From assembly GCF_009931435.1 (NCBI RefSeq), contig NZ_CP043414.1: 64,000 nucleotides of DNA, one strand, 5' to 3'. A program made the translations under genes and the position numbers. Below are positions 4,852 through 48,857 of this stretch, in pieces. The notes under the pieces are model-generated. The model saw nothing but the letters and a program-made list of their open reading frames with translations, was not told where the DNA came from and ran no database searches. Position 1 is the first letter of the stretch. Every line of letters starts with the position of its first letter. Source of the stretch: Escherichia coli. GTDB taxonomy: Bacteria; Pseudomonadota; Gammaproteobacteria; Enterobacterales; Enterobacteriaceae.

Positions 4852-4999
4852 ACATTGTCATCACATGTCATCGTCACTAGTGTCGATGACATCGTTTTTT
4901 CTGCACTGCAGAATTTAATTTCTTTAAATAACAATCAATTAAAAGTTGGCATGATTTGTGAATGTATCGGCGCATTAACTGTCATTGCTGGAGAATTTG

Positions 5000-8058: not shown

Positions 8059-9192
8059 CTACATCGGCAAGGTTTTCAACAATCCAAACGCCTCTTTCAT
8101 CCGATCCTCACTGACCACAAAAGCGCGAAGCTGGTCAGCATCGTCAACGCCGCGCGCCACCATTCCCTGGCTTTCGGTACAAATCTGCCAGCGCAAATCC
8201 CGACGCTGGGTTTCCCCTGCCAGATGCAGCGGTAATTCCGGCGTTTTGATTTTTACCAGCATGGCGGGAAGTTTCAGCGGTGCGTTTCCACCGAGCAAGT
8301 TCTTCGCCAGCACCATCGCGCTAAGTTGAATCGGCTGCAGGAACGGCAATACCTGACCGTTAATTTCTGCGCAATCGCCCAGCGCGTAAATATCGGCATT
8401 ACTGGTTTGCAGATAACTATCGACGCAAACGCCGCGATTAATCGTCAGCCCTGTACGTCGTGCCAGGGCGGTTTCCGGGCGCAGTCCGGTGGCGGCAATT
8501 ACCGCATCCACTTCGATGCTGCGCTGGCGGTCCAGCGTTGCCAGAATACCAGAATTCGTTTTTTCCAGCCCCTGCAACTGAGATTTCAACAGCAGATGAA
8601 CGCCCATCTCCGTCAACCGATGCTGCAAGCGGCTGCTTACTTCCGGTGGCATTAACGACGCCAGAATACTGGCAGCGTTGTCGATTAGCGTGACCGCTTT
8701 GCCTGCCCGACAAAAATCCATCGCCAGCTCGCTACCAATCAAGCCACCGCCAACAATCAACACGCGTCGGGCATCCCGCAGTTGCGTTTCACAGGCGCGA
8801 TACTCTTGCTGACTATTTAACGTCAGCATTAACTCACGCCCAGACACTGGCGGGACAAAGGCACTGGCACCAGTTGCCAGCACCAGCTTGTCGTATTGCC
8901 ACTGATTATTCTGGCTTTTCACCACATGGGCTTCGGCATCGATATCCGTCACCCAGGTGTGCGGAAACAGGTGCAGATTAAACTGCTCGGCAAATTCACC
9001 CGCCGTCTGGCGGGTGAGGTCATCGGCACGTTGCCCCTGGCTGATAACATGGCTAAGATCAGGTTTGTTGTACTCATCCATGCTGTCGGCGGCAATCAGG
9101 GTTAATGGAATACTGGCGTCCTGTTTGCGAATATTTTTCACCAGTTGGCGGGCGGCGAAGCCCGAACCAATGATCACAATGCCGTTGCTCAT
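8059..9192 (-). CDS. norW: NADH:flavorubredoxin oxidoreductase
   Basis: 377-aa ORF with N-terminal GxGxxA FAD/NAD-binding motif ([10 protein letters not shown]); overlaps norV by 4 nt. Confidence 0.93.
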
Positions 9193-10628
9193 TTTGCCTC
9201 CGATGCCAGTTCGTCAAAGACGTCTTTGCCAAGGGAGCATTCCGGGCACAGGAAGTTATCCGGGACTTCACTCCACGGCGTTCCTGGCGCAACGTCCTGC
9301 ATTGGCTCGCCTTTTGCCGGATCGTAAATCCACTGGCAGACGCTGCACTGCATCCGTGGGCCGAGGTCAGCCGTCGTGGTGGCACAGGTTTCTTCTTTAA
9401 CCACCGTATTCACCGTGCTCTGCGGCAGCGGCGAAAGCGCCCACTGACGGGCAATTTCACGACCGTGTTCACGGCATAACTCCAGCGCATCCTGGTCCGG
9501 TCGCCATTTGGCTTTCAGGCTAAGCGACATTTCGAAACCTGCATCCTGCAGGCGTGTGGAAAGACGATCCACCGCACCGCCGCTCCAGCCGTGAGAGCCG
9601 AAAGCACTGGCGCGTTTGTTACGGAAGCGTAATCCGGTCATCTCCTCCACCAGCCCGGCGATTTTAGGCATCATCACGTTATTCATCGTCGAAGTGCCGA
9701 CCAGCACGCCTTTTGAGCGGAAGACATTGGTCAGGATTTCGTTTTTATCGCTTCGGGCGACGTTGAAAATTTTCACCGCTACGCGCGGGTCGGTTTCCGC
9801 AATCCCCTGGGCGATAGCGTCAGCCATCATGCGGGTGTTATTCGACATGGTGTCGTAGAAAATGGTGATTCTGTCTTCCTGATAATCCGCCGCCCATTTC
9901 AGGTACAGCTCGACAATTTGCGTCGGGTTATCGCGCCACACTACACCGTGAGAGGTGGCAATCATATCGACCGGCAAGTTAAAGCCCAGGATCTCGGTGA
10001 TTTTCGGCGTTACCAGGCGGCTGAACGGTGTCAGGATATTGGCGTAGTAACGCTGACACTGCTCGAAAAGCTCGGTCTGATCCACTTCATCGTTGAAGAG
10101 ATGCTCGTCGCAGTAGTGCTGACCGAAAGCATCGTTACTGAACAGCACCGCGTCGCCCGTCAGGTAAGTCATCATGCTGTCCGGCCAGTGCAGCATTGGC
10201 GTTTCGACAAAAATGAGCTGTTTGCCGTTGCCGATATCCAGCGTGTCGCCGGTTTTCACCACGTTGAAATTCCACTCTGGATGATGGTGATGACCATTTA
10301 TTGAGTCGATAGCGTTGGCAGTACAATAGATCGGCGTATCGGGAATTTGCGCCATCAGTTCGGTCAGCGCCCCGGCGTGGTCCTCTTCAGCATGGTTAAT
10401 CACGATGTAATCGATATCCGCCAGATCGATTTCATTACGCAGGTTCTGCACAAATTCGCGGCTGAATTTATGGTCGACGGTGTCGATCAGCACGTTTTTT
10501 TCTTCGCGAATGAGGTAGCTGTTGTAGCTGCTGCCGCGCAGCGTTTTATATTCTGTACCGTGAAAATCACGCACTTCCCAGTCACGTTGACCAACCCAAT
10601 GAATGTTATTTTTCACCACAATAGACAT
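9189..10628 (-). CDS. norV: Anaerobic nitric oxide reductase flavorubredoxin
   Basis: 479-aa ORF with metallo-beta-lactamase-like, flavodoxin-like and C-terminal rubredoxin (CxxC...CPxC) regions. Confidence 0.93.
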
Positions 10629-10675
10629 AGCAACCTCAATTTATTCAGTGTGTTCTAAAAAGATGTCTTGCTAAT

Positions 10676-10691
10676 TGCAGATTGCGTGCCA
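10676..10691 (-). promoter_or_regulatory. Sigma-54 (-24/-12) promoter of norVW
   Basis: Reverse complement reads TGGCACgcaatCTGCA (GG-N10-GC spacing), about 45 nt upstream of the norV ATG. norV is known to be sigma-54/NorR dependent. Confidence 0.6.
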
Positions 10692-10746
10692 GTTTTTTAT
10701 CTGATTGTTTTTACTATATAAATAAAATTATGCTCATTAATGAGTA

Positions 10747-10802
10747 GTCAAAATGACTATCAATAAAATGGTCGATATGACAATATCTATAGTCAAATTG
10801 AC
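10747..10802. promoter_or_regulatory. Three NorR enhancer-binding sites (GT-N7-AC)
   Basis: GTCAAAATGAC (10747-10757), GTCGATATGAC (10771-10781) and GTCAAATTGAC (10792-10802) in the norR-norV intergenic region; matches the established NorR site consensus. Confidence 0.6.
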
Positions 10803-10814
10803 AGTGAGGCAAAG

Positions 10815-12329
10815 ATGAGTTTTTCCGTTGATGTGCTGGCGAATATCGCCATCGAATTGCAGCGTGGGATTGGTCATCAGGATCGTTTTCAGCGCCTGAT
10901 CACCACGCTGCGTCAGGTGCTGGAGTGCGATGCGTCTGCGTTGCTACGTTACGACTCGCGGCAGTTTATTCCGCTTGCCATCGACGGACTGGCAAAGGAT
11001 GTACTCGGTAGACGCTTTGCCCTGGAAGGTCATCCACGGCTGGAAGCGATTGCCCGCGCCGGGGACGTGGTGCGCTTTCCCGCAGACAGCGAATTGCCCG
11101 ATCCCTATGACGGTTTGATTCCCGGGCAGGAGAGTCTGAAGGTTCACGCCTGCGTTGGTCTACCGCTGTTTGCTGGACAAAACCTGATTGGCGCATTGAC
11201 GCTCGACGGGATGCAGCCCGATCAGTTCGATGTTTTCAGCGACGAGGAGTTACGGCTGATTGCCGCTCTGGCGGCGGGGGCGTTAAGCAATGCGCTGCTG
11301 ATTGAACAACTGGAAAGTCAGAATATGCTGCCGGGCGATGCCGCGCCATTTGAAGCGGTGAAAGAGACGCAGATGATCGGTCTGTCGCCAGGCATGACGC
11401 AATTGAAAAAAGAGATTGAGATTGTGGCGGCGTCCGATCTCAACGTCCTAATCAGTGGTGAGACGGGAACCGGTAAGGAATTGGTGGCGAAAGCGATTCA
11501 TGAAGCCTCGCCACGGGCGGTGAATCCGTTAGTCTATCTCAACTGTGCCGCACTGCCGGAAAGTGTGGCGGAAAGTGAGTTGTTCGGGCACGTGAAAGGG
11601 GCGTTTACTGGCGCTATCAGTAACCGCAGTGGAAAGTTTGAAATGGCGGATAACGGCACGCTGTTTCTGGATGAGATCGGCGAGTTGTCGTTGGCATTGC
11701 AGGCCAAGCTGCTGCGGGTGTTGCAGTATGGCGATATTCAGCGCGTTGGCGATGACCGCAGTTTGCGGGTCGATGTGCGCGTGCTGGCGGCGACTAACCG
11801 CGACTTGCGCGAAGAGGTGCTGGCAGGGCGATTTCGTGCTGACTTGTTTCATCGCCTGAGTGTGTTTCCGCTTTCGGTGCCGCCGCTGCGTGAGCGGGGT
11901 GATGACGTCATTCTGCTGGCGGGGTATTACTGCGAACAGTGCCGCCTGCGGTTGGGGCTTTCCCGCGTGGTGTTAAGTTCCGGGGCGCGGAATTTATTGC
12001 AACATTATAGTTTCCCGGGGAACGTGCGCGAACTGGAACATGCTATTCATCGGGCGGTGGTGCTGGCGAGAGCGACCCGCAGCGGCGATGAAGTGATTCT
12101 CGAGGCGCAACATTTTGCTTTTTCTGAGGTGACGTTGCCGACGGCAGAAGTGCCGATGGTGCCCGTTGTTAAGCAAAACCTGCGTGAAGCGACAGAAGCG
12201 TTCCAGCGTGAAACTATTCGCCAGGCGCTGGCACAAAATCATCACAACTGGGCTGCCAGCGCACGGATGCTGGAAACCGACGTCGCCAACCTGCATCGGC
12301 TGGCGAAACGTCTGGGGCTGAAGGATTAA
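10815..12329 (+). CDS. norR: Sigma-54-dependent NO-responsive transcriptional activator
   Basis: 504-aa ORF: GAF domain N-terminus, AAA+ sigma-54 activator core ([14 protein letters not shown]), C-terminal HTH. Confidence 0.93.
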
Positions 12330-29248: not shown

Positions 29249-30361
29249 TTACCTGTCAGTCACCCGATATTCCACGCTATGTGCTTCATCAGGTTGAGGA
29301 ACTTCCAGCCTTGAGGCCATCCGCATCACGACCGCTTCAGGAACGGCATACTCGCGCCTGGCATTTTGCTGCTTCCATTGCGCCCACGGTACTTCCAGAT
29401 AAACGATTTTTACTCGTGCACCGTAAGCCGTAAACAGACTGATGAGCTGGCTACGCAACTGGCGGGTAATGTTCGTTGCATTCCAGATGAACGGCTTCTT
29501 CTGGCGTAAAAAAACGCGCGCTTCTTCTTTTGCCTGTTGCACAATACGCCCGGTGGCGGTTTTGTCGTCCGGACTGGCATTGATTCGCCGCCGCATATCA
29601 TCAAGGCTGATAACGTTCACTCTCTGGCACTGTTCACTGATAAAGCGATCTTTGCCCATACCCGGTAAACCACACAGCAAAATAACCTCAAAAGATTCAG
29701 CCTCCCAGGGAACAAAATCAGGAGAACTTTGTTCATGGGTCAGGTAATGCCAGCGTGCGGAATCCGAAGCGAATGAACGCACTTTTCCCCAGCATTGTTG
29801 CTCCTGGCAAAATAGCTTGAACAGATCGATGCGTTCCAGCATTGATTGCTGATCATGACAATGGCGACCAAGCAGATCGGCACGAGCAAGCAAAGCGAGC
29901 AGACGCGTGTCGATACGCATTGCAGCCGTGAGCAGCAAACGCTCCGGTTCCGGACGTTCCAGTAACCATAGCGGTAACCCATGCAGACGCACCAGTGCAA
30001 CAATTTGCTCGCGTAGCACGAACGGTGTCGGGATATCGCGCCATAAAATTTGTCGGGCCGTCAATTCACCCCGACGAGCATGACCAGGGGACTGAATACG
30101 TCCGTTTTCCTGCACGGTAGTACTGCGCTTTTCAACGTCATGCAATAACGCCGCCGCCCATAAAATTTCCTGCTGCTGAGCGGGGAGTTGCTGAAACTCA
30201 GCCATCGCAACGAGTGCGTTCAGCACCATTTCAGTATGCACACCAACGTCGCCTTCACCATGATGCTCCGGGTCTTGCGGCGTGTTATGCATATCCTCAA
30301 CCCAGCTAAAACGCTGGCGTAGCGTCGACCAGCGTTTGTCGTCGGTAAGTTGCCAAATCAT
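29249..30361 (-). CDS. HD-domain phosphoesterase fused to P-loop NTPase (polynucleotide-kinase-like); predicted RNA/DNA end-healing enzyme
   Basis: 370-aa ORF. N-terminal HD signature: [16 protein letters not shown] (res 31-46), AALLHDVEK (res 70-78), ARADLLGR (res 159-166). C-terminal Walker A GLPGMGKD (res 231-238) and Walker B-like NVISLDD (res 249-255). Start overlaps the stop of the upstream ligase-like ORF by 4 nt. Confidence 0.65.
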
Positions 30362-31065
30362 GACTGTTCTCCATAAGCGAACTCATGGGCCATCCGCGCC
30401 CGTCGCCAGTGGCGTTTCCAGTGCTCGGTGGTTTTGACATGATTTTTGCGTACATACTTGAAGACGTTATGCGAAAAGTCAGCGACGGAAAACGCATCAC
30501 TATTCCGGCTGACAATGCCTTCCAGCGTACAGGGTTGCCCGGTTTGCGTATCCCAGGGATCGAACGCGCCGCGCGCATTGGTCAGCGCCAGAAAATCACG
30601 TTGCCAGCTTTTTTCATCATTCCCCGGCTGCGGGCCGGAGATTTCGGGAACGCAGGGGAAATCAAACAGAGCGGCGTAAAACTGCACCTCTTCCCAGCTC
30701 AGCCACATATCCTGGCAGCGAACGGCAAACAGATAAAAATCCTGCTCCAGGGCGCGATATTCAATCGAATGAACGGCATAAAGATTTTCACCAAACAACT
30801 CCAGATCGCCGAGATCGTTTTTCAGCGATTGCCAGCGTTGGCGAATTTTATAGGTCCATGCCGATTCCGTTGGCGCGGCATGGGAACGGGCAAACACGCC
30901 GAAGCGATTAAGACAGTTATTTTCGCCGTCGAGTTTTTCAGTATGTACCAACTGCGAAATTGCCTGCATATCTTGCCAGTAACTGGCGTTAATGCGGTCA
31001 TCGCTGGTGGTGCCAGGGGAGAAGGGATAATGCCAGGTTCTCCCGTATTTACGTTGGATAATCAT
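30358..31065 (-). CDS. Rnl2-like ATP-dependent RNA ligase (nucleotidyltransferase domain only)
   Basis: 235-aa ORF with candidate covalent-nucleotidyltransferase motifs in canonical order and spacing: I KLDG (K44), III LFGE (90-93), IV EGIV (182-185), V KYVRK (203-207). First gene of a 2-gene operon. Confidence 0.6.
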
Positions 31066-31322: not shown

Positions 31323-32861
31323 TTAGTGCGCACCGCCTCCGCCGCCACCTGCGCCAAATGGCGGTTTAGCAAACCACACCAGCCCCAGCAGGACGAGGAA
31401 TATCCCGGCTGACATCCAGAAGATCTCATTGGCGGAAATAATCAGCCCCTGATTAGTGATCTGCTGGGCAATCCAGCCTGATGCCTGTTGTTGCGTCATC
31501 CCCAGCCCTTCCAGTTGGCTGTACATCGCCTGAGCGTTCGGGTTAAACGGGTTTACCGACTCGGTTAACTGTGCGTGGTGCATCGACTCGCGGTTGGTCC
31601 ACATAGTCGTCGTAATGGACGTGCCGATAGATCCCGCCAGCGTTCGCGTAAAGTTGGAGAGACTCGATGCCGCCGCCAGTCGTTCCGGTGGCAAACCGGA
31701 CAGCGTAATGGTGGTCAGCGGCATAAAGAAGCAGGCCACCGCGAAGCCCTGGATAAACTGCGGCCAGGCCGACGCACCAAAATCCATACCCGGTTCAAAG
31801 GTATAGGCACGCCAGTAGAAGCAGACGGCATACATAATAAAGCTGAAGGTTACCAGCCGCCGCATATCCAGTTTATGCGCGAAGCGGCCGATAATCGGCG
31901 ACAGGATCACCGGAATAATCCCTACCGGCGCAGAGGCAAGCCCCGCCCAGGTTGCTGTATAGCCGTAGACTTCTTGCAATAACTGCGGCAGCAGAACAAT
32001 CGCGCCGAAGTAGAGCATATACGCGAGGCTGATACACAAGCAGCCGATGGTGAAGTTGCGCGACTTAAACAACGACAGATCGACTATAGGGTTATCGTCG
32101 GTCAGCTCCCAGACAATCAGGAAGCTGATAGCCACCACCGCCACCACGGTGAGGATGATAATTTCCTGTGATGAAAACCAGTCCAGCTCTTTACCCCGGT
32201 CGAGCATAATCTGCAGGCTGCCGATACCAATCACCAGCAGTGCCAGCCCCACGGCATCAATCCGCCGCCGTTCGGTGCGGGTTTCGCGTCCGCGCAGGGT
32301 TTGCAGTGTCATCAACACCACCGCCACGCCAATCGGCACGTTGATGAAGAATATCCAGCCCCAGTGGTAATTATCGCTGATATAACCGCCGAGGATCGGG
32401 CCGCAAATTGGCGCGACAATCACCGTCATCGACCACAACGCCAGCGCGATCGAGCGTTTGGCTGGCGGGTAGTTATTCAGCAATAGACTTTGCGAAAGCG
32501 GGATCAACGGCCCGGCGACAATTCCCTGAATCACGCGGAAGAAGATCAGCATATTCAGGCTGCTGGAGACACCACATGCCCACGATGCAATAGCGAAGGC
32601 GATGGTCGACCAGAGGAACAGCTTCACTTCCCCAACACGTTTTGCCAGCCAGCCGGTAAGCGGGATCGAGATGGCATTCGCCACCCCGAAAGAAGTGATT
32701 ACCCACGTTCCCTGGCTGAGCGATGAGCCCAGGTTTCCGGCGATAGTGGGGATCGCTACGTTAGCAATGGTGGAGTCCAGCACCTGCATGAATGTCGCCA
32801 GTGACAGCGCAATTGTCATAATGACCAGTTGCGCGCCTTCCAGCGGTTTTTGCTGTTGCAT
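31323..32861 (-). CDS. emrB: Multidrug efflux MFS transporter, permease subunit
   Basis: Track ORF 31323-32870; ATG at 32861 gives MQQQKPLEGAQLVIMTIALSLATFMQVLD..., 512 aa, 14-TM MFS. Confidence 0.93.
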   Translation of the reverse strand: MQQQKPLEGAQLVIMTIALSLATFMQVLDSTIANVAIPTIAGNLGSSLSQGTWVITSFGVANAISIPLTGWLAKRVGEVKLFLWSTIAFAIASWACGVSSSLNMLIFFRVIQGIVAGPLIPLSQSLLLNNYPPAKRSIALALWSMTVIVAPICGPILGGYISDNYHWGWIFFINVPIGVAVVLMTLQTLRGRETRTERRRIDAVGLALLVIGIGSLQIMLDRGKELDWFSSQEIIILTVVAVVAISFLIVWELTDDNPIVDLSLFKSRNFTIGCLCISLAYMLYFGAIVLLPQLLQEVYGYTATWAGLASAPVGIIPVILSPIIGRFAHKLDMRRLVTFSFIMYAVCFYWRAYTFEPGMDFGASAWPQFIQGFAVACFFMPLTTITLSGLPPERLAAASSLSNFTRTLAGSIGTSITTTMWTNRESMHHAQLTESVNPFNPNAQAMYSQLEGLGMTQQQASGWIAQQITNQGLIISANEIFWMSAGIFLVLLGLVWFAKPPFGAGGGGGGAH

Positions 32862-40669: not shown

Positions 40670-41023
40670 GCAATAGAAAGATTCCTGTTATTTGTTTATG
40701 TCGATACATTACCCAATGGAAATAGTCACTTTTTTCTACCCTAACATACTGAGAATCTGAGGCAACCCCTGATGGCAAATGTGGCATGAATATTGATGCG
40801 AGCAAATCGCCGGAATTTCCCATGATATAAGGGCTGAGAGCAAATCGAGAAAGTTGATATTTTTTGTCATAGATAGCGAAAAAACGCCTGAATATTGTGG
40901 TTTCAGGCGAATAATGCAACAGAGTATCAGTGTAGATCACCACAAAATATTTGCGTGATAAAAAGCTATTTGGCAGGAATTATTTCCCTACTGTGGTTGG
41001 TGATATTTTTGAAAATAACACAC

Positions 41024-48191: not shown

Positions 48192-48857
48192 GCTAATGCT
48201 CCTTAATAAAAGCGTAATGGGACGTTAATAGAGATGAAAGCAGTGGATCTCATTGCCATCTGCATTTTCGCATAGCGTATATCGCTGGCTATGACTAATC
48301 AATTAGTGAAAAATTTTTATTTAATCTGTTTTTGTAGATAAAATATTCCGTAGCGGCGCGTTTTTTGTACATTGTGGATTTTTACATGCTGATATGATTT
48401 ATTTTTAATTAAATCAATTAGATATGGGCGTATCTTTATTTTCACTAATGAAAGTTTGGGGGTGAGGTAACGCTATAAGCGTAGAGAATTCGGTGTATGC
48501 AGTGACTGGGTCATTTTCAGCATTTTTTATGCCAGACAATGTACATTAACAGCAGAAAGCACCAGTGAGTGATGTTTATTTTTATTCGTATATATTGCAT
48601 TTTTATTCGATTTGGTTTTATCAGGCTTGCGGAATTAGCGAGCAGAGAGCGCCGCTCTGTTCACCAATAACCGAAATTACTCATCAAATTGGCTAATATA
48701 TAATCTTGAAATTATTCTGAGAGTTTCAGAAAATAACAGCTGAAATAATCTCGTGCAGGACTGTAAATAGATTAAATTTTGTGGAAATATAATAAGTGAT
48801 CGCTTACACTACGCGACGAAATACTTTTTGTTTTGGCGTTAAAAGGTTTCCTTTATT

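Follow-up and report, generated by a model that had tools for sequence, protein, structure and literature searches.

The 186-bp spacer between norV and norR described here is, judged from its sequence, almost certainly the native region through which nitric oxide induces the E. coli norVW operon, a reading to which we give a probability of about 0.96. This control region is already known in full, and it is intact and ordinary here. The window, by which we mean the whole 64,000-nucleotide stretch of DNA that was analysed, is a segment of the E. coli chromosome with the gene order hycI-asc-hydN-hypF-norWV-norR-gutQ-srl-...-gab. According to the open reading frame and annotation boundaries, the divergent intergenic spacer occupies positions 10629-10814, the exact gap between norV (9189-10628, minus strand) and norR (10815-12329, plus strand), and contains 30% G+C. 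An earlier note had matched this spacer to the established regulation of norVW, and the match holds, with flanking genes that score above their NCBIfam cut-offs and with published primers and a published ChIP-seq motif that agree with the sequence; no observation spoke against it. What this analysis established is the anatomy of the sequence, the statistics behind it, the identity with the characterised K-12 allele and how far the region is conserved across genera.

The flanking genes norR, norV and norW are intact. NorV, the flavorubredoxin nitric oxide reductase (479 aa), scores 1046.7 bits against NF003954, for which the equivalog cut-off is 711, and differs from its K-12 counterpart at four amino acids. 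NorW, the NADH:flavorubredoxin reductase (377 aa; 8059-9192, minus strand), reaches 679.3 bits against NF003437 (equivalog cut-off 392). The NO-sensing enhancer-binding protein NorR (504 aa) scores 820.6 bits against NF003451 (equivalog cut-off 476) and differs from K-12 NorR at 11 of 504 residues. Its Pfam domains comprise a GAF domain (22-154), a Sigma54_activat domain (187-353) and an AAA lid (359-420), with the GAFTGA motif at residue 262; the short C-terminal helix-turn-helix domain was not detected by Pfam at E ≤ 0.001. R75, D96, D99, C113 and D131, which we take to be the residues of the iron centre, are all retained. On the norV side, a Shine-Dalgarno GAGG was read directly at 10634-10637 (minus strand), and the TGAGGTTGCT-ATG block of norV is kept in the alignment of enteric spacers.

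The enhancer consists of three inverted repeats, all of which fit GTC-N5-GAC. Site 1, GTCAAAATGAC, lies at 10747-10757 and is the promoter-proximal one, site 2, GTCGATATGAC, at 10771-10781, and site 3, GTCAAATTGAC, at 10792-10802. They were read directly at the span where the earlier note had placed three GT-N7-AC NorR sites (10747-10802), and they are the published sites 1-3, which map onto exactly these repeats through the mutagenic primers of Tucker et al. 2010 (PMC2831303). The site 1 repeat is that of the Site1 primers and of the 21-bp site-1 oligonucleotide, site 2 that of the Site2 primers, and site 3 is identical in sequence to the Site3 primers; the published numbering likewise places site 1 nearest the promoter (PMC2831303). 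The centre-to-centre spacing is 24 bp between sites 1 and 2 and 21 bp between sites 2 and 3, roughly two helical turns each, and 12 bp separate the end of site 3 from the norR ATG. Relative to the predicted norVW start, the three centres fall at about -87, -111 and -132.

How much weight these repeats can bear depends on how strictly the motif is worded. As GT-N7-AC, the form in which the earlier note had given it, the motif occurs 203 times in the 64-kb window, and this wording alone is not significant, since 149 of 200 simulated windows contained three copies within 56 bp. The sites themselves are nevertheless present, and the stricter GTC-N5-GAC, with 14 matches in the window, did not cluster three times within 56 bp in any of the 200 simulated windows, nor did three copies arise in the spacer in any of 20,000 simulations with the spacer's own composition (these simulations were first-order Markov). 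Position-weight matrices for both factors also bear out the note's reading, placing the sigma-54 element first in the window and the NorR sites in the top three places. The NorR matrix was symmetrised and built from 130 distinct sites at non-Escherichia loci of other genera; site 1 (20.6 bits) ranks first in the window, site 3 (18.3 bits) second and site 2 (16.6 bits) third, while the other eleven core matches score between -0.1 and 16.2 bits. Because the GTC/GAC core is a condition of this matrix, what it tests are the inner and flanking positions, for which the consensus is GTCA-N3-TGAC.

Two of these further matches deserve mention in their own right. A fourth GTC-N5-GAC, GTCACGTTGAC, lies at 10581-10591 in the norV coding region, 38-48 nt past the ATG, and is probably due to chance, as it reaches only 8.2 bits on the NorR matrix. 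An isolated GTCATAATGAC at 32815-32825, inside the 5' end of emrB, scores 16.2 bits, just below site 2; it stands alone, no sigma-54 element was found close by, and it too is probably a chance match. Near emrB, the window also carries a two-gene insert (29249-31065, minus strand) between luxS and emrB, which we presume is not expected at this position on the K-12 map. The product of one gene (370 aa) has an AAA_33 kinase-like domain and matches an HD domain weakly, below threshold; that of the other is a 235-aa RNA ligase family protein, and the pair looks like an RNA-repair-type cassette.

The promoter element recognised in the earlier note, TGGCAC-N5-CTGCA at 10676-10691, was read on the norV strand and belongs to a sigma-54 site already mapped in E. 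coli. The -24/-12 element, CTGGCACGCAATCTGCA, spans 10676-10692 on the minus strand, with the GG of -24 at 10690-10689 and the GC of -12 at 10678-10677, and is the motif OS25 assigned to norV by sigma-54 ChIP-seq, with a PSSM score of 12.27 and a distance of 37 nt from norV (Bonocora et al. 2015, PMC4591121, Table 1). Within it, TGGCACGCAATCTGCA (10691 to 10676, minus strand) is the sole exact match to TGGCAC-N5-YTGCA in the 64-kb window. A sigma-54 matrix was built from 40 intergenic E. coli ChIP-seq motifs (PMC4591121, Table 1), excluding norV and also hydN, which lies inside the window. With 18.2 bits, the norV element outscores every other match in the window, both strands considered, and among the training sites it would take 8th place. 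Of 100 simulated 64-kb windows, 10 contained an equal or higher score, so the promoter call rests also on position and on the literature, which includes an RpoN holoenzyme gSELEX peak within the norR-norV spacer (PMC8743547). From the usual spacing between -12 and +1, transcription of norVW is predicted to start at about 10665 on the minus strand with a 37-nt leader, in agreement with the 37 given for norV in Table 1 of PMC4591121.

Three further sigma-54-like motifs in the window were observed alongside. The second-best match to the sigma-54 matrix (17.2 bits) is CTGGCATAAAAAATGCT at 48519-48535 (minus strand) in the alaE-stpA spacer, about 327 nt upstream of alaE and conserved in K-12. The sigma-54 ChIP-seq paper (PMC4591121) does not contain this motif in its main text, and neither alaE nor stpA is mentioned in that of the RpoN SELEX paper (PMC8743547). 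In the proV-nrdF spacer, GTGGCATGAATATTGAT at 40781-40797 (plus strand) is a known sigma-54 site, OA04 of the ChIP-seq set. The hydN-hypF promoter carries TTGGCATGATTTGTGAA at 4946-4962 (plus strand), upstream of hydN, which is OS26 with one base different from K-12.

Between enhancer and promoter lies a 55-bp stretch (10692-10746) with 82% A+T and 18% G+C, compared with 51% G+C for the window. IHF is stated to bind between the NorR enhancer sites and the norV start (PMC2831303, citing Tucker 2004), and this is the stretch reported to be bound and bent. The suggestion that the A+T-rich DNA suits IHF-mediated looping draws on composition and on the published statement of binding; to the IHF consensus the E. 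coli sequence offers only a match with two to three mismatches. At one mismatch or fewer, no match to the IHF consensus WATCAANNNNTTR was found between enhancer and promoter; the single such match in the spacer (10758-10770) falls between sites 1 and 2, and the 53 across the window, against 58 expected, are at chance level. The candidate core AAACAATCAGATA (10698-10710, minus strand), two mismatches from the consensus, was placed by its aligned position in other enterics, and AATCAGATAAAAA (10706 to 10694, minus strand) offers an overlapping alternative register. Exact copies of the consensus lie 7 bp upstream of TGGCAC in the spacers of Citrobacter, Kluyvera and several Enterobacter; the aligned position is degenerate in E. 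coli and E. albertii, and the CA of the IHF-like core is invariant in the 14-genus alignment. We infer from these features where the core would lie in the E. coli spacer; papers on NorR biosensors and on dCas9 looping give no coordinates for it. A role for IHF is suggested by the high A+T content, the conserved position and the binding stated in the literature, and not by a consensus match.

The spacer is nearly that of K-12. It matches E. coli K-12 MG1655 at 182 of 186 positions and shares with it the gene order, the length of 186 bp, the three sites with their 24- and 21-bp spacings, and the sigma-54 17-mer. The four single-base changes, at 10742, 10730, 10712 and 10645 (columns 76, 107, 125 and 192 of alignment A1), all lie outside the functional elements, sparing the NorR sites as well as the -24/-12 element. 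For K-12, changing any one site to GG-N7-CC abolishes induction of norV-lacZ, single-site mutation weakens enhancer-dependent ATPase activity and open-complex formation, and all three NorR sites are essential in vivo (PMC2831303). Genomic SELEX with NorR recovered the norR/norVW spacer as its only major target, the figure legend noting two minor peaks elsewhere (PMC8249747).

The norV-norR spacer was found in 5425 of 5426 complete E. coli genomes, and the allele in the window, at ≥99% identity, in two of the 5426. The 601 bases around the spacer (10400-11000) are 100% identical to strain R32_14_1F, to which most of the window is about 98.6% identical and its last 10.7 kb 98.2%, so that the window belongs to a different strain; together with the count of two genomes this suggests an allele that is rare or shared by recombination. 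One reading is that the four lineage-specific changes, two of which (10712 and 10730) fall in the A+T-rich looping stretch, would alter the binding or bending by IHF and hence inducibility. The departures from K-12, the rarity of the allele and an IHF core that even in E. coli generally fits the consensus poorly speak for it, but no change touches a NorR half-site, the -24/-12 element or a column invariant across genera, this stretch has changed far more in other genera, which tolerate it, and NorR, NorV and NorW are intact. We consider such an alteration very improbable. The related idea, that through IHF-dependent looping the rare allele may set a different NO threshold or a different norVW output from those of K-12, is likewise very doubtful, and the spacer is best read as an ordinary norVW control region.

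A more drastic change was observed elsewhere in the species. E. coli isolate AF3 (NZ_OZ547117.1, L125:3492-3652), from a UK blood culture, carries what appears to be a precise deletion of 45 bp by which sites 1 and 3 are fused, seen in one of the 5426 complete genomes. Aligned to 10747-10802 of the window, this allele has one enhancer site left in a spacer of 141 bp. If it is no assembly error, it should fail to induce norVW, given the results of Tucker et al. 2010.

The norR side of the spacer suggests a second use of the same sites. NorR is described as a regulator of both norR and norVW (PMC8249747), and the three sites, directly upstream of the norR start codon, are positioned for the reported control of norR by NorR, a geometry from which autoregulation may be inferred. 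A sigma-70 consensus scan of the plus strand of the spacer did not find a norR promoter, and it returned one chance-level match on the minus strand (10783 to 10756). TATAGT at 10788-10793 is not claimed as a norR -10 element, as an acceptable -35 is absent. Since site 3 ends so close to the norR ATG, any norR promoter must overlap the NorR sites, and it could be argued, with this overlap and the dual role of NorR in its favour, that the sites serve here mainly as norR autoregulation operators and not as the norVW enhancer. Operator and enhancer roles are not exclusive, however, mutation of any single site abolishes norV-lacZ induction (PMC2831303), and a sigma-54 promoter stands at a conserved offset on the norV side, so that a mainly autoregulatory function appears extremely unlikely.

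Scanning 100,044 species genomes with GTCA-N4-GAC-N(8-12)-GTC-N5-GAC-N(11-15)-GTC-N5-GAC returned at least 120 loci. Among the matches listed, a divergent NorR homologue (42-97% identity) starts beside site 3 at 57 of 120, and nearly all NorR-linked loci have TGGCAC or TGGCAT at a fixed offset past site 1. Again among the matches listed, most Enterobacteriaceae have an offset of 55 bp, Morganellaceae one of 53-55 bp and Pseudomonas one of 41 bp, and the same arrangement stands beside NorR homologues in Pseudomonas, Comamonadaceae, Shewanella and Morganellaceae. In these matches, norV lies downstream in Citrobacter, Enterobacter, Kluyvera, Pseudescherichia, Klebsiella, Moellerella, Morganella and Shewanella, and the NO-inducible flavohaemoprotein gene hmp (NF009805, 528-566 bits) in Pseudomonas, Comamonas and Mitsuaria.

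When 14 enteric spacers from 14 genera were aligned (alignment A2), mean column identity was 61%, and nearly all invariant columns were functional. They comprise the GTC and GAC halves of the three sites, joined in sites 1 and 3 by the A that follows GTC; on the promoter side, TGGCA-G, the -12 G and some of the A-run preceding TGGCAC; and the CA inside the IHF-like ATCAA. The -12 element (columns corresponding to 10676-10680) was seen to vary: it reads CTGCA in Escherichia, Citrobacter and Kluyvera, TTGAT in several Enterobacter, Pseudescherichia and Morganella, and CTGAT, CTGAC or CTGAA in many Pseudomonas hmp promoters among the matches listed. All of these forms other than CTGCA are without the canonical C of the -12 GC.

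Among the closest known systems are the divergent promoters of NorR homologues and hmp in Pseudomonas. There, too, three GTC-N5-GAC sites abut a divergent NorR homologue (about 50% identity), and TGGCAC or TGGCAT follows site 1 at a fixed offset before a gene for NO detoxification. The target differs, being hmp and not norVW, as do the site spacings (19/26 bp against 21/24 bp in E. coli), the promoter offset (41 bp against 55 bp) and often the -12 element (CTGAT against CTGCA).

Additional Pseudomonas loci have the same three sites with TGGC(A/G)CG or TGGCATG about 41 bp downstream and no adjacent norR, and several genomes carry a second or third triple-site locus of this kind among the matches listed. 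By-eye reading of open reading frame translations placed an NnrS-like membrane protein downstream at five of them (L005, L020, L037, L078 and L105) and a short-chain dehydrogenase-like gene at three (L013, L055 and L086); some of the loci lacking norR have a small open reading frame (MF.FFSN...) together with an NnrS-like gene. These loci look like additional members of NorR regulons. Seven loci in Bacteroidales metagenome-assembled genomes (L003, L047, L048, L049, L065, L066 and L071) were rejected as false positives of the scan arising from repeat arrays. L003:2155-2290 is a tandem array of about six copies of the 23-bp unit TCAAGGGTCATAATGACTCTTCA, and the other six show pattern matches at 23-bp intervals, with several contigs affected in each genome; none of these array loci yielded a NorR homologue.

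The abundance of the loose GT-N7-AC motif and the 10% of simulated windows with an equally large sigma-54 score might still be held to favour chance matches without regulatory role in an A+T-rich spacer, but this view has a negligible probability and is already refuted by conservation and published binding data: the stricter cluster was never seen in simulations, the sites are invariant over 14 genera while the surrounding spacer has diverged, the arrangement recurs beside NorR homologues in other families, and binding and mutagenesis have been published for identical sequences (PMC2831303, PMC8249747, PMC4591121).

For the norVW control region, protein binding, the need for all three sites and IHF binding are carried over from the K-12 literature, and the mechanism in the window strain would by analogy follow the same course. 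NorR dimers would occupy the three GTC-N5-GAC enhancer sites, and occupancy of all three would allow assembly of the active AAA+ oligomer. Binding of NO to the non-haem iron of the GAF domain would then release the repression of ATPase activity. IHF would bend the A+T-rich 55 bp and so enable the NorR oligomer to touch the sigma-54 RNA polymerase, presumed to be pre-bound as a closed complex at the -24/-12 element. ATP hydrolysis would open the promoter, and norVW would be transcribed from the predicted start on the minus strand.

Looping assisted by IHF is a feature of enhancer-binding-protein promoters such as those of the NtrC/glnAp2 and NifA/nifH types. The norVW region resembles generic promoters of this class in having activator sites about 80-140 bp upstream of GG-N10-GC and an AAA+ activator with GAFTGA. 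The NorR system differs in that there are three sites, all essential (PMC2831303), and in that the signal is sensed by the iron centre of a GAF domain and not through phosphorylation.

The norVW promoter serves as a model of how sigma-54 promoters are activated from enhancers, and it is commonly built into NO biosensors. The finding matters little past correct annotation, and it places an intact promoter in the window strain. As a search motif GT-N7-AC is too loose, whereas triplicate GTC-N5-GAC is highly specific, and the exact triple-site pattern retrieved NorR-linked loci from many proteobacterial genera.
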